A DNA stretch of 64,000 nucleotides from a bacterium (GTDB taxonomy: Bacteria > Armatimonadota > Zipacnadia > Zipacnadales > Zipacnadaceae): assembly GCA_030615605.1 (NCBI GenBank), contig JAUWYY010000005.1, forward strand, positions 119,067 through 183,066, given 5' to 3'. The notes below the pieces were generated by a model, which saw nothing but the letters and a program-made list of their open reading frames with translations, was not told the origin of the DNA and made no database searches. The translations under genes were made by a program, and so were the position numbers. The first letter of the stretch is position 1. Each line of letters opens with the position of its first letter. This document shows, piece by piece, positions 6,665 to 24,340 of this stretch.

Positions 6665-7003
6665 TTATTCTCCTCTGAAGATGTTTTCGATATCTTCTAT
6701 CATATCTCTTATTCTAGTATTTAATAGTTCCAGGACTTTCACTATTCTGTCTATCATATTTTCTAAAAGCAAGAGAATGGTTGCTATGATGTTCGCAACC
6801 GCAAACACTAAAGAAGTAACAACTAATAGTGTCAAAGCAATTGGAACGTGCAGGGCGAGAATTACCATAAACTGAAATATAAACAAGAACAGTTTAGTTG
6901 TTGCTATTGCTAATGATTTAAAACTATAAACAAGAGTTTCCCATATTTCTCTGGCGTAACCAATCAAATTCCTGGTAACCCCATCCAGAAACCAAGACTC
7001 CAT
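6665..7003 (-). CDS. small integral membrane protein (112 aa) inside AT-rich insert
   Basis: Hydrophobic segments (FIFQFMVILALHVPIALTLLVVTSLVFAVANIIATILLLL). Sits in the AT-rich segment flanked by 14-bp direct repeats. Confidence 0.45.
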   Translation of the reverse strand: MESWFLDGVTRNLIGYAREIWETLVYSFKSLAIATTKLFLFIFQFMVILALHVPIALTLLVVTSLVFAVANIIATILLLLENMIDRIVKVLELLNTRIRDMIEDIENIFRGE

Positions 7004-7254
7004 TACCTTCTCATCCTTTCATTACTTGCCAACCCCTCTAACCTTTGATCAATTCTTTCAGCTGTTCTGTTAGCTTCATCCAGCCTTTCTCGGGCTTTCT
7101 GTAGAAGAGTATTTGACGAAGCATACAAGCCCTCAACTGCATTGTACAGCCTTCCCAAGGCCTGGTCAAGATATTCTAACATTGTAGTAGAACCAGAGAG
7201 AAAAGAACTTATAAAACTTCCTACTTCTTTGTCAGACTCTCTATAAGCGCACAA
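7003..7254 (-). CDS. coiled-coil protein (83 aa) inside AT-rich insert
   Basis: Heptad-like charged sequence (ARERLDEANRTAERIDQRLEGL). Abuts the membrane-protein gene with adjacent stop/start. Confidence 0.4.
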   Translation of the reverse strand: MCAYRESDKEVGSFISSFLSGSTTMLEYLDQALGRLYNAVEGLYASSNTLLQKARERLDEANRTAERIDQRLEGLASNERMRR

Positions 7255-7291
7255 GAACCATGCCTGCTCGCTGGGGGCATTACCACTTCTT

Positions 7292-8545: not shown

Positions 8546-9170
8546 TTTTCAGTCCAGTCTTGCTCAGTCTGTATCTCGCCAGTGGCTTGCGCTTCCCTCT
8601 TTTTCTGTGTTCCTCTTCTCTTATCACTATTTCTCCCTGTATCGCTTTCTGCAGTATATCATTCAGATTTTGCCTACTTATCCCCATCGGCTCAGCGCCA
8701 GCTCTCTGCGTCCTGGGCCGATAGCGCTTCTTGATCTCCTGCAAGATCTCTTTGGGCCTCATCGCCTCGTCACTCATCGCGCAAACGATGGCTTTCTTCT
8801 GACGCCCACACGCCACCCAGCCGTAGCTGCGCCAGTTGATTCTAGGTTGCTGGTAGACACTAGCTAGCCCACGTTCTTCGCACAGATGTGCACGCAACGC
8901 ACGTCCCTTGGCGGTCAGGCCGTAGACTGTGCCCGGGCGACCCCGTGGGAGGGAGGGTGTCAGGCACTTGATGATGTGCTGCCCTTGAAGCTCGCGAAGA
9001 ATAGGCGTCGGCTTGGGGTGTTGGATGAGGTTCAATTTGCCAGTGATGCAGCGTACCAGTTCGCCGGCCAGCTTGGGCTTGTCCAATGTCAGAATCGCAG
9101 GTGTCGCCCTATCCTTTGTAAGACCAGTACGGATACTTCTCGCGCTGATGCGTCGTCTTGTTGCTCCCAT
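8517..9170 (-). CDS. hypothetical protein, possible winged-helix DNA-binding protein
   Basis: 'GRPGTVYGLTAKGRAL' and 'RYRLSKTGLKIK' resemble wHTH wings. Overlaps the integrase 3' end. Start uncertain. Confidence 0.3.
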   Translation of the reverse strand: MGATRRRISARSIRTGLTKDRATPAILTLDKPKLAGELVRCITGKLNLIQHPKPTPILRELQGQHIIKCLTPSLPRGRPGTVYGLTAKGRALRAHLCEERGLASVYQQPRINWRSYGWVACGRQKKAIVCAMSDEAMRPKEILQEIKKRYRPRTQRAGAEPMGISRQNLNDILQKAIQGEIVIREEEHRKRGKRKPLARYRLSKTGLKIKQLLTDVS

Positions 9171-9395
9171 ATGGGGCTAACACTTACCATCCGTTTAAGA
9201 TTGTTGTACTGAAAGTGTTCCGTGCCGAATGCGAGGCACTCCTGTGGCGCTGGACACACTCCGAGCGTGGGTCAGCCGTGGCCAGCCGTGTGCTCTCAAG
9301 TTGTGTTGTGTCAAGTGAAGGACTGTCAGCCCTCCAACGCGAAAGATGGTTGGGTAAGAAGGTTGCTCAGGCGCTTTGGCAGGAGGACATCAGTG

Positions 9396-11018
9396 GACGC
9401 CAAGTTTCTGCGTAGTATTGAACTGCTATTGCACCAAGGCAAGCGTGACGAAGCCAAAGCCCACTTTGAACAGGTCAAGGGATCCGCCGCGAACTCAGCG
9501 ACAGCACTTGTGGCCGAGGCACTGCTGCTCTTCTTTGATTATGATTGGAAACGTGCAATCACGGCTGCCCAGTCGGCGGAAACGAAATCCCGTGCTGCCG
9601 ATGATATGCTTCTCACTTCATGGGCCTGCCGACTGTGCTCGGAATCGCAGCGTGGGCTGGCCGACTACGGTGGAGCCCTGTCATCGGCCGAGGATGCTGT
9701 GCGAGCTGCCCGAGCTGCGGAAGACAAGCTTGCCGAATCCAGCGCACTCGCCAGTTACTCAGATGCTCTGCGTATGTTGTACCGGAATGAAGAGGGCTTG
9801 AGTACGGCTGAGGAGGGATTAGAGGCTGGGCTGTCTGCGCAAGACGTGCTCGCCCAAGCTTACGCGCTTCTCGTGAAATCCCACGTGCTCGTGGTACTGG
9901 ACTGCTACGACGAAGCACTGGAATCAGCTGAGGAGGCCCTGTCACTATGCCAATCCACTGAGAATAGGTACTGTCAAGGCCTTGGTCATTTTGCTAGGTC
10001 CCAGGCCCTGCGCATGCGAGGCGACTTCGAGGAGGCGGTGGAAGCTGCAGATCAAGCGTTGCTGATCTCAGAAGATGCTGGACATCAAGTTGTCCGAATC
10101 ATCGCACTGCTCTGCAAGGCAAGAGCGTTACGCATGTTGGATCAGCGTGAGGGTTCCCTGATAACAGCTCGAGAGGCACTGGCCATCGCCCAAGCTATCA
10201 AATACAAGCGCGGCGAAGCCAACGCACTCATCAGCATCTGCGATGCGCTATTTGTGCGGGAGCACTATCATGAGGCGTTGGCAAGAGCCGAAGAGGCGTT
10301 TCGCGCTGCCCAAGCGGCTGAAGACAAGGTTGTAGAAGCCAATGCATTGCTGAGCAAGTCCAAGATACTGCACGCTATGGAGCGGGACGAGGAAGCCTTG
10401 GTGGCAGCCGAGGATGCAGATAAGCTAGCCTCGCTAACTGCCGATGCAGAGCTAGCGGATTCCGCTCGCAGCAACCTCATTGGGCTTCTTGAGGAAAAGG
10501 GCATGAGCAGCGAAGAGATAGCAGAATTACTATACATGCTGAGTCAGCGGCCCCTCGGGAGATACACCATTCACACCCACGACAAAGGAGAAGAGCGTGT
10601 GACCGCAAGGCAGCTGAAGGAGTTCCGGGAGAGACGCAAGCCCCATGACCATTTTGTCTGGATAAACCAGCTAAGGAAAGAGTGTTACATCAAGGCCACG
10701 GAGGACACCAAAGAAACGGTGAAGGTTGAGCTGTCCGGAGTGCCACTCGCCACACTAGCAGAGCTGGTCAAGGCTCATGGGCAGGAAGTGCCCACCGCCG
10801 CACTGTATGAGGCGGGACGTGACCACGCTGCTGGACGGACGACGACGGTGGCTGAGAACGTCCGTGGCACAGTATATCTTATACGAGAAGCTCTACGGGA
10901 GGTCAATCTGGACGCCGACAGCTTGATACCCGAACCACCGCGTGGCGGAGGCGCGTACAAATGGGCTGGACCTGTGAACTTCTGCATCATAAGTCACCAG
11001 AGCAAGCAGAGCGGTTAA
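9396..11018 (+). CDS. TPR-repeat protein (ORF open from 9222; start chosen at GTG 9396 with AGGAGGA RBS)
   Basis: More than eight degenerate 34-aa repeats with the A/L/E pattern typical of TPRs (e.g. 'AEEALSLCQSTENRYCQGLGHFARSQALRMRGDFEEAVEAADQALLI'). Confidence 0.7.
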   Translation, partial: DAKFLRSIELLLHQGKRDEAKAHFEQVKGSAANSATALVAEALLLFFDYDWKRAITAAQSAETKSRAADDMLLTSWACRLCSESQRGLADYGGALSSAEDAVRAARAAEDKLAESSALASYSDALRMLYRNEEGLSTAEEGLEAGLSAQDVLAQAYALLVKSHVLVVLDCYDEALESAEEALSLCQSTENRYCQGLGHFARSQALRMRGDFEEAVEAADQALLISEDAGHQVVRIIALLCKARALRMLDQREGSLITAREALAIAQAIKYKRGEANALISICDALFVREHYHEALARAEEAFRAAQAAEDKVVEANALLSKSKILHAMERDEEALVAAEDADKLASLTADAELADSARSNLIGLLEEKGMSSEEIAELLYMLSQRPLGRYTIHTHDKGEERVTARQLKEFRERRKPHDHFVWINQLRKECYIKATEDTKETVKVELSGVPLATLAELVKAHGQEVPTAALYEAGRDHAAGRTTTVAENVRGTVYLIREALREVNLDADSLIPEPPRGGGAYKWAGPVNFCIISHQSKQSG

Positions 11019-11695
11019 CTGCGCTGGGCTGACCACCACTCGTACGGCGGCTTGCACTCATGCAACGAAACTAAGTCTGCCATAATTAGTTCCCAAGCTG
11101 CCACGAACTCATCCAAGTGCTTGTAGGAATCGTCGTTCTTGGGCCGCAGTCGCGTTAGCTCCTCCCAGTTGGCCATGCATTTGTCGTATTCAGGGCAACA
11201 CAGTTCCTCGATGTTAGGTACCATCACCAGATTCTGAACGTATCGGCCTCCGTCCGCCTCGGGATCATGGAGGTACTCACGCTCAAGCGCAGGCAGCTGC
11301 TCTGCAAACCGCTTCTTTCGCCACCCTCTCGTCAGGGAGTTGAGTGTCCGTCCCGTTCCGAACGTGAGGTATCCACAGGGCCCTCTCGTAGGGAACTGTG
11401 TGCCGTGCTTGGCTGGCTTGGCAAGTTGGTGGGGGCAATATGCGACCCGCGCTCCTTCAACTAACGCAGCGAACATCCTGGCGAGGTTATCTGGTGAGAG
11501 AACTTCATGCTTGTATAGAGGTTCCCAGAGACGCTGCGTGACGAGCCAGGAAATCACCTTCTGCCTCTGTCTGCCACCAATCTCTCCTGTCCGCAGTGGG
11601 CGGAGCTGAAGGCTACGATAGAATCCTTCGTCCTGACAATAACCATCAAGAAAGACCCCTAAGGTCGTTCCATAATCGCATTCAAATTGAACCAT
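11015..11695 (-). CDS. hypothetical protein (226 aa)
   Basis: Long ORF with coding-like codon bias. No recognisable motif. Confidence 0.45.
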   Translation of the reverse strand: MVQFECDYGTTLGVFLDGYCQDEGFYRSLQLRPLRTGEIGGRQRQKVISWLVTQRLWEPLYKHEVLSPDNLARMFAALVEGARVAYCPHQLAKPAKHGTQFPTRGPCGYLTFGTGRTLNSLTRGWRKKRFAEQLPALEREYLHDPEADGGRYVQNLVMVPNIEELCCPEYDKCMANWEELTRLRPKNDDSYKHLDEFVAAWELIMADLVSLHECKPPYEWWSAQRS

Positions 11696-12472
11696 ACAGC
11701 ATGGGTAGAGAATGAGCCTTATGAATCTTGTGGTGGGTGCGTGCTGGCCAAGAGACAGCAGAGTGGCAAATTCGACCCAAAATCGACGAAACTCCGATGG
11801 GTTCTAGATATTCGTTCTGGTTACACTGGGGTAAAATAATAGCAGAAGAACGGGGCAGCCCGCGACTCTCGAGACCTTGGGTGGGAACCGAGATGGATCT
11901 GTCCATACCAGAGAACAGTAGGTCCTTGGTAGGAGCGGCCTGCATAGGCCGCCGGGCTGCCCGTTCTAATGATCAGCATAACCTGCACACATAAGGGGTG
12001 TCAAGCAATGGGCAACCATCTGGCGGTGGAAATGCGTAGCAAGGCCCTGCTGCTACGCATGGTAGACCAAGACAACCAGTCGTACCTTGCCGGAATGGAG
12101 GGACGCCGGCGGCTGATCGTGGGAACGGATGGTTTCTGCCATGTGCAGATCAATCAGGATAGCGACACACCTATCCGATTGGCTCTGACCATTGACCACG
12201 CCACCCAGAGGCTCATCGGAGGCGAACGATCTCAAGATAAAGGCCAAAAAAGGAGCACACGACGATGATTCTTTCGGCTTGTGATGTGTGCGGACTATCG
12301 TGTCAACTCAGCCACCAGGCAAACCATTTGGGTGATAACAGGAGGTTCAACCCTGATTCGTCGCAGCCGCACCATCAAGTCGAGGAGAGGCCCCCGGAGG
12401 TGGATGGAGAGCGCGACCGTTGGTCGGATCCGCCACTGCGGGCGCTTCTCGACAGGAAGGAGGAAACCAGCA

Positions 12473-12703
12473 ATGGGCATACTTGAAATGCCAAAACCGC
12501 TCCCAGACATGTTCCCGGTCAAGAAGCTGCCGGAGTGGCCCTTCCGGGTACCGTTCCCCACCAAGCCGATAATACCTCACACTCCGGCGCCATTTGACCC
12601 CTTGGCTCGGTGGAACAAGATATGGGTCAAGCGGTTCATCAGAGCGGATGTCGCCCGCCGGAAGCGGGAGAGACGGCAAGGCTATCGGTTCAGGATCCAC
12701 TAG
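12473..12703 (+). CDS. small proline-rich basic protein (76 aa)
   Basis: Strong RBS 'AGGAGGAAACCAGCA-ATG'. The larger track ORF 12281..12703 is probably spurious upstream of this start. Confidence 0.4.
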   Translation: MGILEMPKPLPDMFPVKKLPEWPFRVPFPTKPIIPHTPAPFDPLARWNKIWVKRFIRADVARRKRERRQGYRFRIH

Positions 12704-12850
12704 CTGCACGTCCAACTGCTCTGCTGGGGACGTCGCTCTCCCGTCCCCAGTTCTGAGTCAAGTACGGGCATGGCGCCCTGGCCAGCAGCGGGAGAGGAGG
12801 TCCGCAATGGTTTCCCGTCGATCCAACAAGTCATTCAAGGAGGTGAGAAA

Positions 12851-13310
12851 GATGCAGGCAATCACAAACAGCCAACAGGCGGCCGAGATCCTGCGGAAAG
12901 CAGGCATTAAGGCCAAAGCAGAGAGTGAAGAAGTAGGCAAAGTAGAGCGGCCGGGTATTTCGTTGGTGGTCTTCAACCGGAAGCCGCTGCTGGAGTTGGC
13001 AGTCATATGCGACGTATTCCCGGCCCAGTCCAGCCGGCAGCGAATCCAGCAGGCGGCACTGCGCCTCTCAGATATCAACGCCTCACTCAGAGGAAGTTGC
13101 AACGGCAATGGAGCCACCATCGCGTTCTTCACTCCGGGCCAGGAAGTACTAGTGGTCTCGCACCTGATGGCCACCGCTACGCCTGACAAGCTGCCGGCAG
13201 CAGCATTGTGGCTGCTTGAAACCGCTCGGCGAATCGGCCACGACGTCAATGGCATTCTGTATCCGGGGTATCAGGAAGAACGCGAGAAAGCGACGCCAGG
13301 ACAAAGCTAA
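12851..13310 (+). CDS. hypothetical protein (153 aa) upstream of Ubl operon
   Basis: RBS 'AGGAGGTGAGAAAG-ATG'. Same strand as, and 75 nt upstream of, the Ubl gene. Confidence 0.5.
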
Positions 13311-13384
13311 TCTCACGGCAAGAGCACGGCGTTGCCTGGCCAGAGCGAGGGCCGCGCACAACATCCGAAAGGGGGTGATCTACC

Positions 13385-13621
13385 ATGAAAGACCTGCTCA
13401 TAGTAATACCCGGGGCTCAGGACGAGAACGAGTCCCGGAGAGAGATCACAATCAAGCCGGGCACTACCGCCGCAGACATCCTGCAGGCGTGTGGGCTGGA
13501 GGGATACTTCCTGTCCAAAGACGGCGGGAGCACGTTCTTCACTTCGGACGAGGATGTCTACAAGCAGGTTGAGTCCGGAGCCAAGCTGTTTGCGACCTCG
13601 GACGTAAAAGTCGGCTGGTAG
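13385..13621 (+). CDS. ubiquitin-like (beta-grasp) small protein, BilA-like; C-terminus ...KVGW
   Basis: 78 aa. RBS 'AAAGGGGGTGATCTACC-ATG'. Alternating hydrophobic beta-strand pattern (LLIVIPG / REITIKPG / KLFAT) consistent with a beta-grasp. First gene of the Ubl-E2-JAB-E1 array. Confidence 0.6.
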   Translation: MKDLLIVIPGAQDENESRREITIKPGTTAADILQACGLEGYFLSKDGGSTFFTSDEDVYKQVESGAKLFATSDVKVGW

Positions 13622-13691
13622 TGCCGGGGACAGTCCGGCTAGGGGGAGGGGAGCTATTGAGCTGCCCCTCCCCCCTACAGGAGGTGATCGT

Positions 13692-14063
13692 ATGCGCAGA
13701 ATTGTCGAACCCAGCCGCACCCCACGGAACAGGATCGTAGTAGACAAGCACAACGTGCCCTATTGGCGCGAGCAAGGCTGGCGCAGTGTGGGTGGTGGCT
13801 ATGAAGGCACATATCGCTCGCCAAACGCGAGACTATTTGGGGAGATTGAGCGCGGCGGCGGCGGCGGCGGTCGGCTGCTGTTGTTCATCAGCGGCCCGCC
13901 TCGGTACGTCATCAACAGTTCCCACGCGCCGTGCTTCCAGCACATCGGCAACAATTGGTGGTCGATTCACTTTGCCAAGAGGCCGCGGAGTGTCTCCGAG
14001 GGGATTCTCGCAGTCGAGCAGACACTGGCCAGCGCCTATCGGGAAACAAGCAGGGAGGTTTGA
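13692..14063 (+). CDS. E2-like ubiquitin-conjugating enzyme homolog (UBC-like fold), BilB-like
   Basis: RBS 'CAGGAGGTGATCGT-ATG'. 'RLLLFISGPPRYVINSSHAPCFQHIGNNWWSI' matches the UBC core pattern (FP.dYP..PP.v.F...HPN...iC...W). Putative catalytic Cys in 'HAPC'. Poly-Gly insert. Confidence 0.5.
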   Translation: MRRIVEPSRTPRNRIVVDKHNVPYWREQGWRSVGGGYEGTYRSPNARLFGEIERGGGGGGRLLLFISGPPRYVINSSHAPCFQHIGNNWWSIHFAKRPRSVSEGILAVEQTLASAYRETSREV

Positions 14064-14066
14064 GAG

Positions 14067-14771
14067 ATGAGAACGCAGCGGTTGATTCTACCCAACAAAG
14101 AGATTATCACGTTTCGGCCTGGTCGTGGGGAACAGGCCGACCAAATCTGGCAGGAGTGGGCCAAGCCTCGTCGCGAGCGACGCCTGGAAACCGGTCAGCT
14201 GAGCTTGGACTTCTCGGGGGATCCGGGAGAGCCGTACCAGCGGGCCGAAAGCTCGGCACTTGAGCCACAGGAAGACATCTCTTACTACCTGGTCGGCTCG
14301 CGCTTCCTGACCTGGTGCAGCAAGCTGCTGCTGCGCAGCGCCGACGAAGGGCTGGTCTTCGTGAGCGGGCTGCAGCTAGAGCCGATACTGACACTGGATC
14401 AACTGGTCGGCTTCGGGTTGAAGCGGCAAAGCCTGACCGGAGCTGAGGCCGACCGCGGCTCGGCCCTACGGGCCCTGATCCAGCTCGACTGCTTTGGGCA
14501 CAAACTTCACGGTGTGTTTCACAGCCATCCGGGCGACGGCCCGATAGGCACGCTGCCTTCGGGCATCGACCACGAGACCCAGGCCCGCCTGGAGCGGGGC
14601 GGCTACCCCGTGATCGGGGGCATCTTCTCGCGCGACGGGTATGTGCGGTTCTTCTCTGAGAAAAACCAGTTTGAGGTGATTACCTATGGTACAGGCATCG
14701 AGTCAGCCGGTGAGAAGGTCTTCCGTGTCTGTAAAGACAGTAACCTACAAGACCAAGCCGCTCGTAGCTGA
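14067..14771 (+). CDS. JAB/MPN (JAMM) metallopeptidase, deubiquitinase-like, BilC-like
   Basis: JAMM zinc motif 'HGVFHSHPGDGPIGTLPSGIDHE' (HxH..S..D). Starts 4 nt after the E2-like stop. Confidence 0.8.
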   Translation: MRTQRLILPNKEIITFRPGRGEQADQIWQEWAKPRRERRLETGQLSLDFSGDPGEPYQRAESSALEPQEDISYYLVGSRFLTWCSKLLLRSADEGLVFVSGLQLEPILTLDQLVGFGLKRQSLTGAEADRGSALRALIQLDCFGHKLHGVFHSHPGDGPIGTLPSGIDHETQARLERGGYPVIGGIFSRDGYVRFFSEKNQFEVITYGTGIESAGEKVFRVCKDSNLQDQAARS

Positions 14772-15519
14772 GTGGGGCGAGGACAGATTCAGCGACCGCC
14801 AGGAGCGAGTGCCGGGGTTCGATCAGGACAGCCTGTCCGCTACCTCAGTGGCCTTGGTCGGGTGCGGGGGATTCGGCGGTGAGCTGGGCGAGGGGTTAGC
14901 GCGAAAGGGCGTCGGGAGCCTCTATTTGTTCGACGGGGATATTGTGGAGCTGTCCAACCTCAATCGCCAGCGCTTCTTCCGGGAGGACCTCTACCGCAAC
15001 AAGGCTGTTTGCGCAGCCCAGAATCTGGCTACAGAATGCTCTGGAGGCACTACGATCCAGGGCTTTGCCGCTACTTTCCAGGACATAGCCGAATCGCCCA
15101 GGATGCCGCCAGCCGACCTTATCGTGTGCGGCGTGGACAACAACGAAACGCGCGTCTACTGCGCCCGCTACGCCCTCAACAGGAGCCTACCGGTTGTGTT
15201 GCTGGGGACCGATGAAACCGCTGACTTTGGATACGTCTTTGTCCAGACGCCGGAGCAGGCTTGTTTCGGGTGCCTGTTTCCCCACGCTGTAGCAGAGCAG
15301 GCAGCGGATCCTGCTCCCTGCGCCAAGGTCGCGGCCGTGAAGGATGTTCTCAAGGCTCTCGCGGGTATTGCGCTCTATGCCGTTGACAGCTTGCTGATGC
15401 CCAGAAAACGCCACTGGAACTACCGACAAATCTCTCTGTCCGCAGAGCTGCCCGATGTGACCAGGACGATCCAGAAGCGGCCTGACTGCAAGCTGTGTGG
15501 TCGGTCAGAGGAGGGTTGA
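14686..15519 (+). CDS. E1-like ubiquitin-activating enzyme (ThiF/MoeB/HesA family), BilD-like
   Basis: 'VALVGCGGFGGELGEGLARKGVGSLYLFDGDIVELSNLNRQ' is the canonical ThiF/E1 nucleotide-binding signature. CxxC pairs 'CFGC' and 'CKLCG' (zinc site). The 5' end overlaps the JAB ORF and the true start is uncertain. Confidence 0.85.
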   Translation: MVQASSQPVRRSSVSVKTVTYKTKPLVAEWGEDRFSDRQERVPGFDQDSLSATSVALVGCGGFGGELGEGLARKGVGSLYLFDGDIVELSNLNRQRFFREDLYRNKAVCAAQNLATECSGGTTIQGFAATFQDIAESPRMPPADLIVCGVDNNETRVYCARYALNRSLPVVLLGTDETADFGYVFVQTPEQACFGCLFPHAVAEQAADPAPCAKVAAVKDVLKALAGIALYAVDSLLMPRKRHWNYRQISLSAELPDVTRTIQKRPDCKLCGRSEEG

Positions 15520-15523
15520 TGTC

Positions 15524-15907
15524 ATGCAATGGGATCAGATGCCAGGGCGACCGCCACCCCGGCCCGGATCGCGGCTGACGCGGCCAACCCAGGGGGCACC
15601 ACACGCCCAGACGACGCGACGCCCGGCGCGGCTACCTCGGAGACCAGAGGCATACAGGGAGCCAGGCCCCTTCGCACGGATACGGCTGCTGGACCGATGC
15701 ATCGGTATCTGTCTTTGCCTGGTGACGATAGCAACTCTCGTTGGCCTGGCGGGAGAGTTCTTCACGGATCTGTTCAGCGATCCGCTGACCTTTGTAGACG
15801 CCCTTTGGAAGATCCCCTTTGCGGTGATAGCCGGGGCTGTAGTCTTGTTTCTGGTAGCGGCTCTGGGCGATTGTGCGTGGTGCCTGTGGCGGACCAGACA
15901 TCAATAG
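15524..15907 (+). CDS. small two-TM membrane protein, copy A (paralog of 16059..16424)
   Basis: GGAGG RBS. Pro/Arg-rich N-terminus followed by two hydrophobic helices. Shares 'DPLTF..ALWKIP' and 'C.W.LWRTR' with copy B. Confidence 0.6.
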   Translation: MQWDQMPGRPPPRPGSRLTRPTQGAPHAQTTRRPARLPRRPEAYREPGPFARIRLLDRCIGICLCLVTIATLVGLAGEFFTDLFSDPLTFVDALWKIPFAVIAGAVVLFLVAALGDCAWCLWRTRHQ

Positions 15908-16058
15908 CAAGTACGGAGAGATACTGATGGAGATAGGCGACATAAGGCAAATCCGGCTGCACGGCGGCATAACTGCCCAGCAGAAGGGAATTGTGGCGGG
16001 AAAAGAAAGTCCGGCCCAGCTGGCAGCTGTGCTACCTATGTGAAAGGAGATAAGTATC

Positions 16059-16424
16059 ATGCGACCAGACGAAATAGATCATTTTCCGCTGCCCCAGCCT
16101 CGGGCGAGGCAGATGCCACCCCGGGAGGCGACGCCCCGTGTCGTCGGGATGAGCCAGGTACCGAGACCGCATTATCCGGCCCCGCGCACCAACTGGGCAC
16201 GAACCATCGTTCGTTGGTTAGCTATGACAGCGGCGCTGGCCGCCATGGCCACCATCGCTGCAATCGTGGCATTATTCTTTATGGCGCTGTTCGCCGATCC
16301 TCTAACCTTCCTGAAGGCGTTGTGGAAGATACCGCTGAGTGTGATAACGGTTAGTATAGCTCTGCTGGTGGAGGTACCGCTAGCGCAATGTGTGTGGCAC
16401 TTGTGGCGGACCAGATATCGGTAG
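16059..16424 (+). CDS. small two-TM membrane protein, copy B
   Basis: RBS 'AAGGAGATAAGTATC-ATG'. 'FADPLTFLKALWKIPLSVITVSIALLVEVPLAQCVWHLWRTRYR' parallels copy A. Confidence 0.65.
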   Translation: MRPDEIDHFPLPQPRARQMPPREATPRVVGMSQVPRPHYPAPRTNWARTIVRWLAMTAALAAMATIAAIVALFFMALFADPLTFLKALWKIPLSVITVSIALLVEVPLAQCVWHLWRTRYR

Positions 16425-16440
16425 AAAGCGAGGAGATAGA

Positions 16441-16873
16441 CATGGAGATAGGAGACCTGCGCGAAGTTCTGTTGAATCAAGGCATAACCGCCGAGGACCA
16501 GGTAATCGTCGAAGGCCAGACCCAACCGCTGGTCCAATCGGCTGAGCAAGCTGTCTTCACACCCGAAGGCTATGTCCGCAGGCGCGTCATGCGGGTAACC
16601 CAGTGCGCCGGTTGTCTGCGCCTGTTTCATCAAGCAGGCGCTGCCGGGTCGGTATGCGTTGACTGTGGCAGGACCCTGTGCCTTACGTGTAGCCAGACGG
16701 TCTGTGCGGATCCGTACTGCCGAAAGCCCGTCTGCCCGGACGACTATACTCTGTGGTGGGATGGGCCTTTGTGCCGCTGGCATAACTGGCTGCGGGTCAG
16801 AGGCTACATCATCCGGGCCCTGGTGATGGCCTCATGTCTCGGCGGATTGGTCTGCTTACTGTTCAACAGCTAG
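16441..16873 (+). CDS. Cys-rich (zinc-ribbon-like) protein with C-terminal TM anchor
   Basis: RBS 'GAGGAGATAGAC-ATG'. CxxC..CxxC..CxxC..C..C cluster (CAGC, CVDC, CLTC, C..PYC, CPDD) and a terminal hydrophobic helix. The N-terminus 'MEIGDLREV' is duplicated as a 38-aa ORF at 15927. Confidence 0.55.
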
Positions 16874-16907
16874 TGGCGCCATAGTGACTTACAAAGGAGA
16901 GATCGCA

Positions 16908-19091
16908 ATGAACAGACACGAACAGGACTACACTCTGGAAGAGCGCTTGGCCAGGTCCGGCCTCAAAGGCCATCCCGGGGCCACCGCGGCCGCGGCCGCA
17001 GCCGCCCTTTCCGGGGATGAGAATCTGCTCAATCGGCTGGTGCAGTTGCTTGATGTCCACGCGGTCATGAACATGGCCGAAGACCACGCGTTCGTGCTGA
17101 ATCAGCCCGAGCCTGAAGACCTCCCCGCTGAGGGCATACCGTGGGTCTGGACTCTGCGCAACGACGGGTCGGCCTTCCCCTGCCCGTTGCCCACCGAGCA
17201 AGACTGGAATGCCTGCCTGCTGGGCACCACCGGTGTGGGGAAAAGCTACGGCGTCAAACACCTGGCCACCCAGCTGCACTTGGCCGGGGAAAGTGTGTGG
17301 ATCTTCGACGTGGAGAACGAGCACGCTGACGTGGCCGTGCAATTTCCTGCAGAAGAGTTCTTAGTGATCGACTACCAGCAGCTCAAGCGCAACATCTTCC
17401 AGCCAGTGCCCGGGGAAAGCCCCAAGGAGGCTATCCACCGCTGCCGCTCGGTGTGGCGGGAGTCGTGCTTCTTGCGCGACGGCAGCGAGAACATGCTGGG
17501 GGACATTCTGTGGCGGGAATACGAGAATCGTGGCGTGTTCCGCGGCAGTCGCAACTACCTCACGCTCGCCGACGTCTGCACCGACCTGACTCGCAAGAAA
17601 TACCGCACCCGCTCGCGAGAGTTCGCGTACTGGGAGACCTTGATGAACCGGACAACCTCGCTGGAGCAGCTTTTGGGTGAGCCTTATGATTGTGTGGAAG
17701 GCTTTGATCTGAGTGAGCTGGTCGGCAAGTCGATGGTCCTGCGCCTGCGGGGCATGGCTGACCAGCTCCGGCTGTTTTTCCTCAACGACCTTATCACCGC
17801 TGCTCTGACCTGCCAGGCACTGCGTCCGGGCAACACCCTGACCATAGTCATTGAAGAAGCCCACCTGACCTACTCTGCGTGGGAGCGGCGCAGTGACCTG
17901 GCCGAGCCGTGCATTCTGCAGGCTGCTCGCCGCGCCCGCAAGCGAGACACACGGCTGGTTTGGGTGGATCAGGTGCCGGCAGCGATGCCGCCTCAAGTAC
18001 TGGCCACCACCCGGGCCAAGACCATCTTTCGCCTCGAAGACGGCGATTCGAAGCGCACGGTGGCCCGCAGTTGCTCGCTGACGCGGGAGCAGGAGGAGTA
18101 CTTGAGCGAGATTCCCGAGAGATGTGCCGTGCAATTCCTGGGCGGTCTGTATCCCAAGGCGTTTCTGGTCAGGTTTCCCGAGCTCAATTTCATCCAGCCT
18201 ACGGAGGCGGAATTGGCCCGCAGGATGCGCCTCGTTCTGGCAGGCCTTCGGTACATGCCCAGACCGCAGCAGCCCAGCCCACCAACTCAGAAAGTGGTGG
18301 CGAAAACCACCCCAAAGGTGGAAGTCAAGCGCCAGCCTGCTCAGAAGGAGCCCACAGCATCCTCACTCACACGGGATGCCATTGACTACCTGATTGAGAT
18401 TGCTAAACATCCTTTTGAGACGGTAACGGAACGAGATGCCCGGCTGGGTCACAGTGGCTACATGGGTGCACGGCTGAGGGATGAACTGGCAGAACGCGGA
18501 CTGGTCGAGCCCTGCCGTGTCAATACCGGCAGGAGGGGTGGAACCATCGTGCTCTATCAGCCGACAGCCACCGGGTGGCGACACCTGAAGTCGGTGCTGC
18601 GCGTGCAAGTAGACCGCCCTCGCGGCAAAGGCGGCCCGGAACATCAGTACTGGCAGCACCAGGCAGCCGCTTGGTGCCGCAGTCGTTTTCCTGACAGCGA
18701 GATAGTGATAGAAGATCATCGCCTGGGCAAGGCAGTGGACGTGGCAGTGTACCTGCCTGACAGCCGCAAGATCGCCATGGAGATTGCCTTGGGTACGGCC
18801 GAGAAGCAACTGTTTGAAGTCGGCAACATCGAGGCTAACCTGGGTGTGGGCTATGACCAGGTGATCGTGGCGGCACGCACCGAGAAGGACCTCGACCGGA
18901 TCAGACGGACAGTGGTCCAGGAGCTGGGCGAGGATGCTGCTAGCAGAATCGAGTGGCGGCGGTTGCGTGAATTCCTGGAACAATCCGATAACGGCGCCGC
19001 AGAAGTCTTAAGTGATCAGCAGTCCCTGGATCTTTCGACACCTACCACACCAAAGGTGATAGTGAAAACGAAAAATGAGTCTGGCCTGTAG
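16908..19091 (+). CDS. HerA/FtsK-superfamily P-loop ATPase fused to winged-helix and PD-(D/E)xK-like nuclease domain
   Basis: RBS 'AAAGGAGAGATCGCA-ATG'. Walker A 'LLGTTGVGKSYG', Walker B 'LTIVIEEAHL'. C-terminus 'AVDVAVYLPDSRKIAMEIALGTAEK..GNIEANLGVGYDQVIVA' has a nuclease-like fold. Located 70 nt upstream of an integrase. Confidence 0.75.
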   Translation: MNRHEQDYTLEERLARSGLKGHPGATAAAAAAALSGDENLLNRLVQLLDVHAVMNMAEDHAFVLNQPEPEDLPAEGIPWVWTLRNDGSAFPCPLPTEQDWNACLLGTTGVGKSYGVKHLATQLHLAGESVWIFDVENEHADVAVQFPAEEFLVIDYQQLKRNIFQPVPGESPKEAIHRCRSVWRESCFLRDGSENMLGDILWREYENRGVFRGSRNYLTLADVCTDLTRKKYRTRSREFAYWETLMNRTTSLEQLLGEPYDCVEGFDLSELVGKSMVLRLRGMADQLRLFFLNDLITAALTCQALRPGNTLTIVIEEAHLTYSAWERRSDLAEPCILQAARRARKRDTRLVWVDQVPAAMPPQVLATTRAKTIFRLEDGDSKRTVARSCSLTREQEEYLSEIPERCAVQFLGGLYPKAFLVRFPELNFIQPTEAELARRMRLVLAGLRYMPRPQQPSPPTQKVVAKTTPKVEVKRQPAQKEPTASSLTRDAIDYLIEIAKHPFETVTERDARLGHSGYMGARLRDELAERGLVEPCRVNTGRRGGTIVLYQPTATGWRHLKSVLRVQVDRPRGKGGPEHQYWQHQAAAWCRSRFPDSEIVIEDHRLGKAVDVAVYLPDSRKIAMEIALGTAEKQLFEVGNIEANLGVGYDQVIVAARTEKDLDRIRRTVVQELGEDAASRIEWRRLREFLEQSDNGAAEVLSDQQSLDLSTPTTPKVIVKTKNESGL

Positions 19092-19161
19092 GCAACCGCA
19101 TATAGATCCGGCGAACATCATGTTCTGACCCCCCCGCCGGACACCAGTTAGGGATAGACAC

Positions 19162-20235
19162 ATGAGAAGCACTGTAGCTGAACATCAAAGCCAGGCAACG
19201 ACAGTAAGCCCCGGTTGCCAGTTGGGAGCGGCCGTTGTCGCTGACAACGAACAGGGAATCCACAATTTCCAGTACTTGGTGGATTCTTTTCTGACCTATC
19301 TTGAGCAGTACCGCCAAGCTTCTCCGCTTACCCTACAAGCCTATGGCCGGGATCTGAAGCGGCTGCATCGCTTCCTGGTGTCTCATGGCCTAGCGACAAA
19401 TGTCCGCAACATTACCAGCCGCGAGCTGCAGGCCTTTGCTGTCTCGATGAGTGGACTGGCTCCAGCCACGATCACACGGGCACTGAATGCTACCAGTTCG
19501 TTATTCAGTTATTTGATAAGAAGCGGTCTGGCAGAGTCCAACCCGGTCGACAGCGTGATCAAGCCCAAGCAGAGGCCTAGTCTGCCCCAGGGGCCAACCG
19601 TTCAGCAATGCCATCGGTTGGTCCAGGCCACTAGCGATATTCGCGACCGAGTTATGATCATGCTGCTGTTGACTGCGGGCCTGCGCCGCTCTGAGCTGCT
19701 GAATTCGCGAACCAGCGATTTGACAGCCGATCTGAGCCGCATTCGGATTATGGGCAAAGGCGGCAAGGAACGGGTAATACCTCTGCCGGAACAGACCCGG
19801 CGAATACTTGAGCAATACCTGGACGAGAGAGAATCAACCTCAGAGCTTCTCTTCCCTAACACGCGCGCCAAGCGCATGGGCAACTCGACGTTCTATCGAA
19901 TCTTCAAGCGCATTGTGAAGAGAGCCGGGCTTGACCAAGCAGGCATCACCGCCCATAGTCTGCGTCACGCCTATGCCACAATGCTGCTGCACTCGGCAGT
20001 GGATGTGAAGACAGTCCAAGAGCTGCTGGGCCATGCTGACCTGAGCACTACTTCACGCTACCTGCACTCGGATGACGCCACCAAGCAGGCTGCCGCTGAG
20101 GCGCTGCCTGACTTGCTCAGCGCGAATGAGGGGCAGGACACACTGAGCGAGAGCCATAGCGAGGAGGCCACGGCCGTTCACCCTAAGAAATTCCCCGCCA
20201 AGAACCGAATCAAATCAGTCTTCAAACGACTATAG
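19162..20235 (+). CDS. tyrosine recombinase, XerC/XerD-like integrase
   Basis: Core-binding domain plus catalytic 'LRRSE', 'HSLRHAYAT', 'LLGHADLSTTSRYLH'. Confidence 0.85.
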   Translation: MRSTVAEHQSQATTVSPGCQLGAAVVADNEQGIHNFQYLVDSFLTYLEQYRQASPLTLQAYGRDLKRLHRFLVSHGLATNVRNITSRELQAFAVSMSGLAPATITRALNATSSLFSYLIRSGLAESNPVDSVIKPKQRPSLPQGPTVQQCHRLVQATSDIRDRVMIMLLLTAGLRRSELLNSRTSDLTADLSRIRIMGKGGKERVIPLPEQTRRILEQYLDERESTSELLFPNTRAKRMGNSTFYRIFKRIVKRAGLDQAGITAHSLRHAYATMLLHSAVDVKTVQELLGHADLSTTSRYLHSDDATKQAAAEALPDLLSANEGQDTLSESHSEEATAVHPKKFPAKNRIKSVFKRL

Positions 20236-20789
20236 TATAAGATAAGGCTGAGTGGATCAGGAGAATTGCACTTGACCTTGGCAGGAAGTCCGGGCGTAGT
20301 TCCGGTAAGTAAACTCGTTGATTAGCTTCGGACTCACAGAGTCGGGAAGGCAGGCTCGAGGAGACAGCCGCATGAGGGCACGTGAGGAAGAGTGCAAGAT
20401 GTGTGCTATTGGCTCAGGGGGTTGCACAATTGCTGTGCAAGGTGGCCTGCGCTTCTGTGTTTGAGCGAGCATATGACAGCACATATGATGCGGCGAGAGG
20501 TATTGAGGCAGGCTTAGACTGGCAAGCAGGCGGTGAGAGAAGGCCAATGTTTCGAGGTATCCAACTCGGGCGGTTGCGCGATAGGAGCGCAGGAGCATGC
20601 CCGTTAGCTGTCCGAAGGCCGCTAATGTGGGTTCGTTCAACCGAAAGGGCCTCCGGACAGCCCACAAATGCCTGACTCTTGTACATGCATCACCAGGGCA
20701 GACAGGGACCTGTGGCAGATTCGAAGAACATCGAACAGACCAGAAGGTAGGTGAGGAATTCCGGTTCTACAAGTAAACAGGAGGAGAAC

Positions 20790-20843
20790 ATGTTAGAGAA
20801 AAGAGGATTTGCCTTGATTGAATTGATGGCGGTGGTACTATGA
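20790..20843 (+). pseudogene. prepilin-type N-terminal leader stub (MLEKRGFALIELMAVVL*)
   Basis: Strong RBS 'AACAGGAGGAGAAC-ATG' followed by the classic prepilin cleavage/methylation motif 'KRGFALIELMAVV', then an immediate stop. No downstream in-frame pilin body. Confidence 0.35.
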
Positions 20844-21395
20844 TATTCTGGTGTGCTCCCGATAAGGAGTATGCCGTCAGACAAGCCCTGCGCGGCGTGG
20901 ATGCCACTATCTTTGATTGCTCGATCAGCAGGGCTTACTGCTGTGGTAGGAAGTAGAGAACTATGGTCGGCACCGGGAGGAATTCGTGATTGACTCAAAG
21001 AATATTATCCGAAACGAGCACCTGGATGAGAAATCCAGGTCAAACAGATGCTGTCCGGCAAAGTGGCTTGGTCGACCTACGAGTTCGGTCACATACCCGA
21101 GGCTGCCGCCGTCTGTCAGGAGATAATGGAAAAATACCCGGATTCACGTCACTCCGGGGAACCGAGCGATCTGTTGGATCAAATTCGCCGTGTCGGAGCA
21201 CCGAGCGAGTGAGGCGCAGCGGCATAAGGTCGCGGCAAGCAGCAAGTCGACAAGAACCGGTTGACGGTGATGTCGTCTTGGCAGCACACTATTCTGGAGG
21301 AATGTCACCATCGCGTCGACGGGGAAGCAAATATGGATGCTACTTAGTCGCGGACAAGGACAAACAGACAGAGATTTTGGGCGGAGGCTCTCATA

Positions 21396-22445
21396 GTGGG
21401 TGGCACTTTCGACAGCCTGAGCCGGGATGCCAGACCTCCGGCCGCAGACTCGACGGCACAAATCCCAACGCCAGAACGTGTCTGGGCAGAGCTTGTCCAG
21501 CTCTGCGCAGTAGGTATGGGTTTCGACAGCCAGATGAGCCTGCCGCATCGACAATTCCAGGAGGACTTGCCTGCTGTCTTCGACCTGAGCCAGAGACACG
21601 GGGTGACGGGACTAGCCTATGAGGGATGCGAGAGAATGGGATATGCCAAAGCTATGGATCCGCACCTTATCAGACAATCAGCAATAAGCTTGCTGCTTAC
21701 AGGAGCAAGGCAGAAGCAGCACGGTCTAGCAATCGCAGAGAGCACAGATGCGCTGGAGAGCGCCGGCATCCGTAGCGTGGTGCTCAAAGGGCTGGCCACA
21801 GCCCATATGTGCTACTCTGACCCGGCGTTACGGCCCTCTGGCGACATTGACCTTCTTGTGGATGTTGACAACAAAGAACGCGCGATAGCGGCGTTGCTCA
21901 ATATTGGCTACGAGGTCCGGGCGGATCCCGTGCCCACCAGTCATATTCTGGCATTTTATTACGCGATAAGCTTAATTAGGGACGGCATTACCATTGACCT
22001 TCACTGGGACCTGCTGAACTGGGGCAGGGAGATCCCAGAGAGCCCGACGATAGAGATTGCAGAGAGGATGCTCAACCGTCGGGCCCTCAGGAAGCTGGGT
22101 GAGGCCGAAGCTTGCGTTCTGACGCCGGGCGACGCGCTGTTGAGCTCCTGCCTTCACCTGTTCGCTCACCGCGGAGAGCGGCGTCTTCTGTGGCTGTGTG
22201 ACACAGCTGCGTTGGCCAGGCATCTCAGGCCTAACCAGTGGTCCGGGATCCGAGGAGAATTAGCGCGGTCCGGCCGTATGGAAGTGTTAGGCACTGCAGT
22301 TCGCACGACACTGGCGCAGGCATGCCGTGATTTTGGCATACCCACTGGACTGAAGTTCTGCAAGGGACTGCCGTGCAGTCGTGCACTACAGGACCTGTTC
22401 GTGTGGCGGCCAGACCTGCACCCGAGGCACAACTTTGATCGCTAG
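21396..22445 (+). CDS. nucleotidyltransferase-family protein (NTP_transf_5-like) of HPr-rel-A-type RiPP cluster
   Basis: 'GIRSVVLKGLATAHMCYSDPALRPSGDIDLLVDVDNKERAIAALLNIGYEV' is the minimal nucleotidyltransferase motif seen next to PqqD/HprK-related kinase genes. Confidence 0.6.
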   Translation: MGGTFDSLSRDARPPAADSTAQIPTPERVWAELVQLCAVGMGFDSQMSLPHRQFQEDLPAVFDLSQRHGVTGLAYEGCERMGYAKAMDPHLIRQSAISLLLTGARQKQHGLAIAESTDALESAGIRSVVLKGLATAHMCYSDPALRPSGDIDLLVDVDNKERAIAALLNIGYEVRADPVPTSHILAFYYAISLIRDGITIDLHWDLLNWGREIPESPTIEIAERMLNRRALRKLGEAEACVLTPGDALLSSCLHLFAHRGERRLLWLCDTAALARHLRPNQWSGIRGELARSGRMEVLGTAVRTTLAQACRDFGIPTGLKFCKGLPCSRALQDLFVWRPDLHPRHNFDR

Positions 22446-23530: not shown

Positions 23531-24340
23531 ATGCAGGCGGGAAGAGGTGTACGGCAAGTTATTCGGTACACTGCGAAGAAGATACTCAGGATAGGCCATT
23601 GCCTTTCATGCTCTGTCAAACGCCATGGCCTCAACGCCAATGCGGACACGGGCCGAGCCTTGGACCTTGGCTCGGTGAAACTGTCACTTGTCAAGCGGGC
23701 GATTCAGGCACAAGGCGGCTTGATGCTGGAATTTGGGGGGTACAGCATGATGCCCAGCATCCGACCTGGGAATACGCTTAAGGTAGTGAAGGCTAGTCCT
23801 GATACCCTCACAACAGGAGATGTGATAGCATTCTTGGCCGGGAGACGAATTGTGGTGCATCGGATTGTGGGGTTGAAACATGGCTGGCGGAAGTGGTACT
23901 TCGTCACCAAAGGGGATAATTGTCAAGTCGAAGATTCACTCGTTGCACCACACCAAGTGCTTGGAATAGTGTGTAAAATACAGACGGGGGCACTAGGACC
24001 TGAACTATCAAGCTCTGTCACTACCAGTACTATCGGGGGATATGAAATGGACCACCAAGCAAGGCCCGTGGCCAAGCCAGGTGTCATATGTCGTAAAGAG
24101 GATGCCGACGGTGTCCTGTTCGACCACGGTACAGGATCCGCAAAGATCCTGAACAGCGTAGGACTCATCGTGTGGGGTTGCTGTGATGGCAGTTGGACGC
24201 TGTCGTCGATCATTGACATGGTTCACAAGCGGTTCCTCGACGTACCGCGCGAGACCATCTCTGCCGATGTCGACAAGTTTGTAATGGAATTGGAAGAGCT
24301 CGAGTTTCTGAGCATTGCAGAGAAGGAGCTCAGCAAGTGA
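23531..24340 (+). CDS. S24/S26 (signal-peptidase-I-like) serine peptidase fused to a C-terminal PqqD-like domain
   Basis: RBS 'AAGGAGCAT-ATG'. 'GYSMMPSI' (Ser nucleophile box) and 'TKGDN' (Lys). C-terminus 'VLFDHGTGSAKILNSVGLIVWGCCDGSWTLSSIIDMV...VDKFVMELEELEFL' is PqqD-like. Confidence 0.65.
   Translation: MQAGRGVRQVIRYTAKKILRIGHCLSCSVKRHGLNANADTGRALDLGSVKLSLVKRAIQAQGGLMLEFGGYSMMPSIRPGNTLKVVKASPDTLTTGDVIAFLAGRRIVVHRIVGLKHGWRKWYFVTKGDNCQVEDSLVAPHQVLGIVCKIQTGALGPELSSSVTTSTIGGYEMDHQARPVAKPGVICRKEDADGVLFDHGTGSAKILNSVGLIVWGCCDGSWTLSSIIDMVHKRFLDVPRETISADVDKFVMELEELEFLSIAEKELSK

Follow-up and report, generated by a model that had tools for sequence, protein, structure and literature searches.

A Cys-rich, predicted tail-anchored protein family encoded beside a HerA-like ATPase, in an apparent Armatimonadota operon that also carries a Bil-like ubiquitin-like cassette

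The conjugation of ubiquitin-like proteins (Ubl) in bacteria, known from the Bil, CBASS Cap2 and Bub/6E systems, is a new and active field in which the machineries have so far been described as sets of soluble enzymes. HerA-type ATPases represent another theme, that of a hexameric pump paired with a nuclease function. Here we describe a meeting point of Bil-like Ubl operons and HerA-based conflict systems, found in a 64,000-nucleotide stretch of DNA from a bacterium of the family Zipacnadaceae, phylum Armatimonadota (GenBank assembly GCA_030615605.1, contig JAUWYY010000005.1, positions 119,067 to 183,066 of the forward strand; the whole stretch is called the window and coordinates are counted from its first letter). 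In this window, a cassette with the gene order of Bil shares an apparent operon with two small predicted membrane proteins (A1 and B1), a probable zinc protein with a membrane anchor (B2) and a HerA-type ATPase. The pair formed by the B2-type protein and the ATPase proved to be the conserved core of the system, as it occurs also with vWA, radical S-adenosylmethionine (radical-SAM) or CAP-domain modules. No description of this gene combination was found in the literature searched, and no source offered a functional name for these proteins, the sole label being ‘hypothetical protein’ borne by two short ATPase-cluster fragments. The analysis thereby defines two protein families for which Pfam, NCBIfam and PADLOC offer no name.

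The BilABCD anti-phage operons, of Type I and Type II, encode in this order a Ubl, an E2, a JAB-type deubiquitinase and an E1 (10.1101/2023.09.04.556158; 10.1101/2023.09.26.559546). The cassette of the window follows this order, with a candidate E2 in second place, and shares with Bil a Ubl-like protein whose conserved C-terminal Gly is followed by putatively removable residues, a peptidase with a JAMM motif and a ThiF-type E1. The likeness has its limits, however. The E1 is short, with a single ThiF domain, whereas the BilD of Type II combines an inactive and an active adenylation domain with a CYS domain, an architecture not found here; the E2-like protein has no detectable similarity to BilB, and none of the four proteins matches a solved Bil structure by sequence. 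Moreover, Bil operons consist of four genes and include neither membrane proteins nor a HerA-type ATPase, unlike the operon described here. Another precedent is offered by the type 6e polyUbl operons (e.g., sll6052), in which a Zn-finger protein was proposed to act as target recogniser (Iyer, Burroughs and Aravind 2006, PMC1779556). Like this ‘Y’ protein, B2 is small, rich in Cys and encoded beside E1 and JAB genes on a mobile element. The 6e signature (C-x3-C-x35-38-H-x2-C) comprises four ligands, however, whereas B2 has 8-12 candidate ligands with another spacing, carries a transmembrane (TM) anchor and belongs to a family that occurs mostly without Ubl genes.

Regarding the motor, the closest systems are HerA-NurA, which acts in repair, the anti-phage systems Sir2-HerA and DUF4297-HerA, and mad8 of the MADS system, whose ATPases belong, as does that of the window, to the HerA/DUF87 clade. 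In the window, nuclease-like and winged helix-turn-helix (wHTH) domains appear fused to the ATPase itself. The constant partner here, a small zinc protein with a membrane anchor, is to our knowledge without counterpart in the HerA systems described so far. The pairing of small TM proteins with a soluble pumping ATPase has counterparts in VirB3-VirB4, CedA1/A2-CedB and PRD1 P20/P22-P9, where the small proteins are known or thought to hold the pump at the membrane. The likeness to these lies in the gene pairing, with no sequence similarity, and may be taken as an analogy only; we know of no multi-zinc domain in VirB3, CedA1/A2 or P20/P22.

The gene of B2 (16442-16873, + strand; 143 aa) lies immediately 5' of that of the ATPase (16908-19091, + strand; 727 aa if counted from the ATG, with an alternative GTG start possible at 16884). 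Word-indexed protein searches with B2 and B1 returned near-identical sequences only, and exhaustive HMMER searches were required to reach more distant ones; among 1.84 billion representatives, these retrieved 25 B2 relatives at E-values up to 1e-3, nearly all of 120-170 aa. The distant homologues (27-35% identity) have an ATPase homologue just downstream in all contexts, the ATPases being 30-56% identical. The association holds equally when approached from the other side: a metagenome scan with the ATPase only yielded 27 further loci, and 24 of the 24 loci retrieved through the ATPase alone and with at least 600 nt of upstream DNA, some of them near-duplicates, carry a Cys-family gene upstream. 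One ATPase alignment gave no match in metagenome or viral contigs and, in genome contigs, matched the genome of one distant relative (L004) only. By local profile searches, the Cys-family gene was found on the same strand, 9-660 nt 5' of the ATPase, in 31 of 31 loci, a count that covers the loci with at least 600 nt of DNA upstream of the ATPase and includes these 24. Eight loci encode a Cys protein devoid of a TM helix, and there a distinct gene for a protein with 2-3 TM helices stands between the Cys gene and the ATPase gene. The recurring core is therefore made of zinc domain, membrane anchor and ATPase, with the anchor either fused or split and kept in nearly all cases, loci of the L010/L018 type being the exception. 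Eight invariant Cys and the place 5' of the ATPase define the new family, which we call the tail-anchored Cys-rich partner of HerA-like ATPase.

A preliminary description of this DNA, made from the sequence alone, had defined the module by its place directly after the E1 gene. This was not sustained, as a ThiF/E1 gene is adjacent in only about one third of the loci, against the 31 of 31 with ATPase adjacency. Our own hidden Markov model (HMM) detected a ThiF E1 upstream in 7 of 25 loci, to which Pfam or gene calls added L004 and L042, and an earlier HMM search L039. The full set of Ubl, E2-like, JAB and E1 genes is confined to three lineages, the window clade and those of L009 and L012, and in some two out of three loci the Cys and ATPase pair stands without any E1, E2-like, JAB or Ubl gene that could be detected. 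Other loci carry instead vWA/TM, radical-SAM or CAP-domain proteins, basic proteins rich in Arg and Tyr, or helical proteins of ~110 aa.

Some of these alternative neighbours recur. On the 5' side of the Cys-rich gene, 13 loci encode the conserved alpha-helical protein of ~110 aa (profile E-values of 1e-20 to 1e-52; e.g., L013 6050-6352, L020 5080-5412 and L042 3252-3578, with 10 further loci), which the window clade, L009, L012 and L015 lack. One subgroup (L042 1130-2031 and the P0010 contig) has a protein of the CAP superfamily (PF00188) directly 5' of the Cys-rich gene, and upstream of it L042 encodes a ThiF E1 and a ThiS/MoaD-like protein of 72 aa without Gly-Gly at its end. Radical-SAM genes stand beside the Cys-ATPase pair in loci of the L013/L020 type. 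The island of L004 has no recognisable Ubl or JAB genes; between its 554-aa E1 and its two-TM gene lies an open reading frame (ORF) of 73 aa ending in ...AALCG (8946-9167), which may be a substrate of that E1.

The preliminary description had also noted a second protein that was rich in Cys, labelled a zinc ribbon, and had a TM anchor; a Cys-rich, probably zinc-binding protein with a TM anchor is supported. Twelve positions of B2 are candidate Zn ligands (C55, C58, H63, C72, C75, C80, C83, C88, C93, C98, C111 and H114). Eight of them (C58, C72, C75, C80, C88, C93, C98 and C111) are invariant Cys in the family alignment, with the spacing C-x13-C-x2-C-x4-C-x7-C-x4-C-x4-C-x12-C, while C55, H63, C83 and H114 are mostly conserved and a hydrophobic C-terminal helix is present in most members. 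The 8-12 ligands would suffice for two or three zinc sites. An AlphaFold2 (AF2) model built with the family alignment (predicted local distance difference test score, pLDDT, 88.2; predicted template modelling score, pTM, 0.70) has an N-terminal beta-hairpin region, a core rich in knuckles and a continuous helix at 112-142 (pLDDT >94); hydropathy (Kyte-Doolittle) gives one TM segment, at about 122-141. Arg residues precede this helix and almost nothing follows it, which by the positive-inside rule suggests that B2 is tail-anchored with its zinc domain in the cytoplasm. B2 is also the most constrained gene of the operon, with a ratio of nonsynonymous to synonymous substitution rates (dN/dS) of 0.08 against the metagenomic relative L001.

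Assignment of B2 to a described fold was sought in several ways. Searches against Pfam, NCBIfam, PADLOC and PHROGs gave nothing at threshold, and Foldseek comparison with PDB and BFVD gave no significant relative, the best match being a FYVE domain (E=0.2, PDB) in a list headed by FYVE and PHD domains. Family members have sub-threshold Pfam matches to zf-C2HC5, Siva, FYVE_2, IBR, B-box, RING_ZNF598 and AN1, all treble-clef fingers; neither a family model match nor a similar cross-brace fold was found that would make B2 a binuclear treble clef of the RING, B-box or FYVE kind. As to a zinc ribbon, in which two CxxC knuckles on beta-hairpins would bind one zinc, B2 has C55xxC58...C72xxC75 and other CxxC/Cx4C knuckles with short strands nearby in the AF2 model, and a DZR_2 match occurs in one member only (0.014). 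B2 probably represents a new multi-zinc domain of treble-clef or zinc-ribbon type, outside any named family.

In the model that we favour, the cytoplasmic multi-zinc domain of B2 would be the obligate partner of the ATPase encoded directly downstream, most likely by docking the ATPase hexamer to the inner membrane on the cytoplasmic side or by regulating it there. The two-TM proteins A1 and B1 would be lineage-specific subunits of the same complex, joining it through their TM hairpins and a shared C.W.LWRTR motif. The Ubl cassette would be an optional addition with a regulatory or effector role, and would represent one of several upstream modules that the ATPase system can exchange. The whole would probably act on DNA at the membrane, in defence or exclusion, as the likely wHTH and nuclease-like C-terminal domains of the ATPase suggest. 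We believe and doubt in about equal measure that B2 serves as tether or regulator of the ATPase at the inner membrane. An anchoring role had already been put forward in the preliminary description, with Ubl conjugation in mind; anchoring as such is compatible with the data, but what needs an anchor is most likely the ATPase. The proposal offers a testable hypothesis of how a HerA-class motor reaches the membrane, and the ~12-kb island that carries the operon is a compact natural construct that could be transferred to a model host to learn how the Ubl cassette contributes to the ATPase system.

Several points weigh against this model. Synteny fits B2 as a tether, gate, activator or inhibitor of the ATPase alike. 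The fold of B2 has no significant structural match, its zinc binding is predicted from ligand spacing alone, and the nuclease-like domain of the ATPase is a reading of motifs. In loci of the L010/L018 type the Cys proteins have no TM helix and no TM gene was seen between Cys gene and ATPase. As for A1 and B1, profile searches detected no homologues beyond the window clade, and the role suggested for them is taken from gene position.

The treble-clef resemblance of B2 raises a different explanation, in which B2 would be an E3-like protein or substrate adaptor of RING, B-box or FYVE type that recruits the E2-like~Ubl intermediate to the membrane, with A1 and B1 as co-adaptors, the module then belonging to the Ubl cassette. 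Prokaryotic treble clefs of the RING and B-box kinds were reportedly described by Burroughs et al. in 2011. The sub-threshold Pfam matches of the family and its FYVE and PHD structural matches go in this direction, as does the 6e Zn-finger proposal (PMC1779556), and where an E1 is present it lies directly 5' of the Cys gene or of the TM and Cys pair. However, no member matches any family model at threshold, and with some two thirds of the loci devoid of the conjugation genes this could not be the ancestral or general function of the family.

The same explanation draws on amino acid composition. The Lys/(Lys+Arg) ratio is 0.06 in A1, 0.14 in B1, 0.08 in B2 and 0.11 in the E2-like protein, compared with 0.28-0.51 in other island proteins and 0.75 in the Ubl. 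Lysine-poor sequences are known from components of the ubiquitin system that avoid self-modification, and the composition hints at proteins that work near lysine-directed conjugation without being its substrates. Relative to their own ATPases, the Cys proteins of E1-linked loci have a median lysine level of ~0.6 against ~1.15 in unlinked loci, a comparison uncorrected for phylogeny or GC content and to which L012 is an exception. A1, B1 and B2 contain one, two and one lysines, respectively, those of A1 and B1 being in the predicted periplasmic loop and none in the Arg-rich cytoplasmic tails. These counts disfavour the earlier suggestion that the membrane proteins are targets of Ubl conjugation. 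We consider an E3-like function unlikely.

A bolder proposal, to which we attach a slender probability, would join both functions by making B2 a membrane-resident, E3-like platform that couples Ubl tagging to a membrane-tethered DNA-pumping nuclease. If true, complexes of invading DNA with proteins, such as phage ejection proteins or conjugative pilot proteins, would receive the tag, and the DNA would be destroyed where it enters the cell, while the lysine-poor A1, B1, B2 and E2-like proteins would be shielded from their own conjugation activity. It would represent a bacterial Ubl pathway organised at the membrane around a non-AAA+ motor.

A1 (15524-15907, + strand; 127 aa) starts 4 nt past the stop codon of the E1 gene and has a Pro/Arg-rich, lysine-free N-terminal tail; B1 (16059-16424, + strand; 121 aa) is its paralogue. 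The preliminary description of the first protein of the module as Pro-rich with two TM segments is confirmed by hydropathy, which places them at about 59-77 and 96-114 in A1 and at about 53-78 and 90-108 in B1 (Kyte-Doolittle, 19-residue windows). The predicted topology has both termini inside, with basic Pro/Arg-rich tails. The two proteins share the loop DPLTF..ALWKIP and place the C.W.LWRTR motif next to the membrane; they are 36% identical over their full length, and BLASTP aligns their C-terminal 49 aa at 53% identity (E=3e-18), in accordance with their earlier designation as clear paralogues. Homology to the small TM proteins of other loci was sought by profile and not found. Strongly basic small proteins rich in Arg and Tyr (e.g., MPRRYRRYRSRYGKKGRYYGKRGR...) are encoded just 5' of the Cys-rich gene or between this gene and the ATPase in other loci (L012 4331-4546, L042 3796-4005, L020 4649-4942 and L013 5374-5940), and might have a fused counterpart in the Pro/Arg-rich tails of A1 and B1.

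Small TM proteins that end defence operons are often effectors, in CBASS and similar systems. A1 and B1, with or without B2, could likewise be membrane-disrupting effectors of abortive infection, forming pores or causing depolarisation when triggered by the upstream enzymes or the ATPase; the preliminary description had named them as candidate membrane-disrupting effectors. The location of the island among defence-like genes is compatible with this idea, and a duplicated, diverging effector would fit an arms race. We found no positive evidence for it, however: A1, the stub that follows it, B1 and B2 have no match at E-values up to 0.1 in PADLOC, TM effector models included (CBASS 2TM/4TM and others). 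Further, the strong conservation of B2 and its architecture, in which one tail anchor follows a folded zinc domain, are atypical for a pore former, the strict synteny with the ATPase across 27-56% identity suggests a stoichiometric partner, and most related systems lack the two-TM family. The effector hypothesis is accordingly given little credence here, and the docking or regulation of the ATPase by B2 is retained as the favoured function.

The two-TM genes owe their number to a duplication. Between A1 and B1 lies an ORF of 38 codons (the A2 stub, 15927-16043, + strand), which the preliminary description had recognised as a stub; about 29 of its codons derive from a Cys-type gene, with 52% identity to residues 1-29 of B2 (E=9e-10), and about 9 apparently from the 3' end of the E1 gene in another frame. 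The nucleotide similarity claimed between the two copies was confirmed by pairwise alignment, nucleotides 15750-16015 and 16267-16530 being 61.7% identical with a score 15 standard deviations above that of 200 shuffles. The ORFs themselves lie where they had been placed, except that B2 starts at 16442 rather than 16441 and has 143 rather than 144 aa. Three converging signals locate the junction at approximately 16008-16015. The similarity between stub and B2 stops at residue 29; collinearity with locus L005, where an A1-type gene is followed by a full-length Cys-rich gene of 144 aa, ends at 16015; and the 64-nt stretches that precede B1 and A1, which are the 3' ends of the stub and of E1, respectively, align with a score reached by one in 500 shuffles. 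The simplest model suggested by these alignments is a single tandem duplication of ~535 bp, spanning the final ~45 nt of E1 and all that follows up to about codon 29 of the Cys-rich gene. Its products would be a second two-TM gene, kept under selection, and the stub as a neutral by-product. Formation of the stub by deletion of a full A2 gene was set aside as primary model, the sequence 3' of the break resembling the 3' end of E1.

A JGI metagenome contig (L001; ~92% nucleotide identity) has the complete layout of 127, 38, 121 and 143 codons among its called genes, a short ENA contig (L002; B1 84% identical in aa) holds part of it, and a Logan contig with an identical B1 (L003) has the 38-codon, 121-codon and Cys-rich genes called and the A1 position uncalled. 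An assembly artefact is excluded because the layout recurs in these independent assemblies, with B1 84-100% identical. In L002, the B2 orthologue ends after a CVDCGR motif (449-754; 101 aa), by frameshift or assembly error in a low-coverage contig. The dN/dS values between the window and L001 are 0.17 for E1, 0.28 for A1, 1.08 for the stub, 0.35 for B1 and 0.18 for the ATPase, in addition to that of B2 given above; against L002 they are 1.71 for the stub and 0.55 for B1. A1, B1 and B2 are under purifying selection, which means that both two-TM paralogues are maintained, and the stub behaves as neutral DNA, though only 38 codons were compared. The duplication is in itself an ordinary event, useful here as a neutral stub and a selected paralogue allow by-product to be separated from function.

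We also considered that the stub might not be debris and might function as a micro-protein or leader ORF. Its length and ribosome-binding site are kept in the window, L001 and L003, and its stop codon lies 15 nt before the B1 start, so that translational coupling to B1 is conceivable. Nevertheless, its substitution ratios are above 1 in both comparisons, L001 has other residues at 8 of the 38 positions, the tail of the stub shows no homology to the Cys family, and 38 stop-free codons are unremarkable at 60% GC. A function for the stub is, in our view, very improbable.

Relatives without the duplication place it in context, and do not all agree with a simple history. The distant L004 (ATPase 58% identical) has a single TM gene (111 aa) and a single Cys-rich gene (143 aa). 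The ATPase of L005 is 88% identical to that of the window, and the conserved C-terminal halves of A1, B1 and the L005 two-TM protein are roughly equidistant (48-54%). Yet in the N-terminal tail the L005 protein is nearer to A1 than to B1 (63% versus 34%), and the stretch from E1 through A1 to the stub is 68% identical to L005 as compared with 83% for the stretch from ATPase to integrase. The duplication history is thus not clean, and unequal rates or an exchange of modules between elements are possible. L005 (4720-6786) is itself a decayed copy of the island, lying beside resolvase and insertion sequence (IS) genes, with the E1 cut to its C-terminal 100 residues and the A1-type gene frameshifted (5964-6083 and 6139-6330). 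Its full-length Cys-rich gene and its ATPase gene are intact, and therefore the Cys gene is here again tied to the ATPase.

The ATPase belongs to the HerA/FtsK superfamily, as judged by its match to Pfam DUF87 (27.3 bits, cut-off 23.2), by PADLOC mad8 (1.2e-13) and by PDB profile matches to a DUF87 protein (8yho), HerA (4d2i) and YjgR, with the Walker motifs GTTGVGKS and VIEEAH visible in the sequence. Its C-terminal 240 residues appear to contain a winged helix followed by a D...E-x-x...K pattern that resembles PD-(D/E)xK nucleases, which would correspond to the proposed wHTH and nuclease-like domains; a paralogue at the window start has a PDI...EIETGK motif and a weak CoiA_nuc match.

These affinities could also be read as those of a DNA transfer or packaging apparatus, in which the ATPase would be an FtsK/TraB-like or viral-type pump and B2, A1 and B1 its membrane dock or channel, in the service of horizontal transfer of the integrative element instead of defence. 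The ATPase indeed matches the PHROG ‘terminase large subunit’ (1.4e-10) and, weakly, NCBIfam CedD, VirB4, TraC and TraD. A recombinase gene lies 3' of the ATPase in five loci (the window, L001, L004, L005 and L009), basic Arg/Tyr-rich small proteins recur between Cys gene and ATPase, and small TM proteins beside a pump recall VirB3-VirB4, archaeal Ced and PRD1 P9 with P20/P22. However, no relaxase, replication initiator, capsid or pilus gene was seen among the island proteins, relatives of the system are absent from 2.9 million IMG/VR viral contigs and almost absent from plasmids, and the fused nuclease-like domain fits degradation better. We regard a transfer function as improbable.

The cassette that precedes the A1 gene, all on the + strand, begins with a Ubl-like protein of 78 aa (13385-13621) that ends in VGW and aligns with the first cassette gene of L009 and L012. 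Its C-terminal Gly (Gly77) is kept in the three lineages, within VGW in the window, VGG followed by a 17-aa extension in L009 and VAG in L012. It has no Pfam match, and a beta-grasp fold is presumed. In second place, as in Bil, is a candidate minimal E2-like protein of 123 aa (13692-14063), with Cys81 and His93 invariant in three homologues. It found no match in Pfam, NCBIfam, PADLOC, PHROGs or PDB sequence and profile searches, and AF2 from the single sequence gave a pLDDT of 49.5; against E. aridi BilB, hhalign returned a probability of 0.1%, which does not indicate homology.

The third gene codes for a putative JAB/JAMM peptidase of 234 aa (14067-14771) with the motif HSHP-x9-S-x2-D (HSHPGDGPIGTLPSGID), against the general form H-x-H-x(7-10)-S-x2-D of this zinc motif; its Pfam Prok-JAB score of 14.4 bits (0.037) is below the cut-off of 25, and that of the L012 orthologue is 23 bits (7.6e-5). 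The E1 (14686-15519) is a ThiF-type adenylyltransferase of 277 aa as longest ORF, the true start being maybe later, with one ThiF domain at residues 46-215 (Pfam ThiF 1.4e-29), matches to PADLOC E1-E2 models down to 1.5e-15 and to NCBIfam ThiF, MoeB and SAMP-E1. A complete conjugation cascade within the cassette is plausible from these assignments.

From the Ubl-like gene to a tyrosine recombinase gene, ten ORFs are tightly packed on the + strand (13385-20235). The spacers within the module (A1, stub, B1 and B2) are of 4-19 nt, with a GGAG-type Shine-Dalgarno-like sequence before each of the four genes, and those of the operon overall are of 4-34 nt, with ribosome-binding sites; terminator-like hairpins in the region are no more frequent than in shuffled sequence. 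The genes for Ubl, E2-like protein, JAB, E1, A1, stub, B1, B2 and ATPase thus appear to form one operon, on an island bracketed by integrases. On the left side the latter is a tyrosine recombinase (7292-8545, + strand; Pfam Phage_integrase 1.4e-12), and the order of integrase, a 217-aa protein on the - strand and a tetratricopeptide repeat (TPR) protein seen there recurs in L004; on the right side it is the XerC/D-like recombinase that closes the array (19162-20235, + strand; Phage_integrase 2e-43). The window contains no tRNA genes and no Rfam matches at gathering thresholds, and a repeat scan of 6000-21500 gave no convincing att-like direct repeats bracketing the island, so that its limits are approximate. 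A direct repeat of 36 nt, 83% identical, occurs at 6583-6618 and 7245-7280, just 5' of the left integrase gene; a link to an attachment site is possible, and the right end of the island showed no copy that matches this repeat.

The window opens inside the gene of the second, paralogous HerA-like ATPase mentioned above (61-1344, + strand), which has the same wHTH and nuclease-like C-terminus with a clearer PD...EIETGK motif. It is followed by genes for a 362-aa protein (1802-2890), a MoxR-type AAA ATPase (2904-4247) and a protein with weak, sub-threshold matches to DUF2201_N (metallopeptidase-like) and VWA_CoxE (4244-5575). These genes may represent a sister system in which a vWA-MoxR module replaces the Ubl cassette, and any Cys-rich partner would fall outside the window. 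To the right of the island, two adjacent proteins (24337-25383 and 25411-26502) match the PADLOC models of prokaryotic viperins (pVip; 1e-16 to 1e-19), although they may be generic radical-SAM enzymes. Further on, a 644-aa protein (29019-30953, - strand) matches PADLOC mad3 (2e-25) and mad8 (8e-6); this ATPase, related to components of MADS defence, adds to the defence-island character of the region. Within the island, the 598-aa TPR/SARP-like gene (9222-11018) contains a 31-nt unit that recurs at 9667-10417 with spacings of 240 and 480 nt and 71% identity, because of the internal repeats of the encoded protein.

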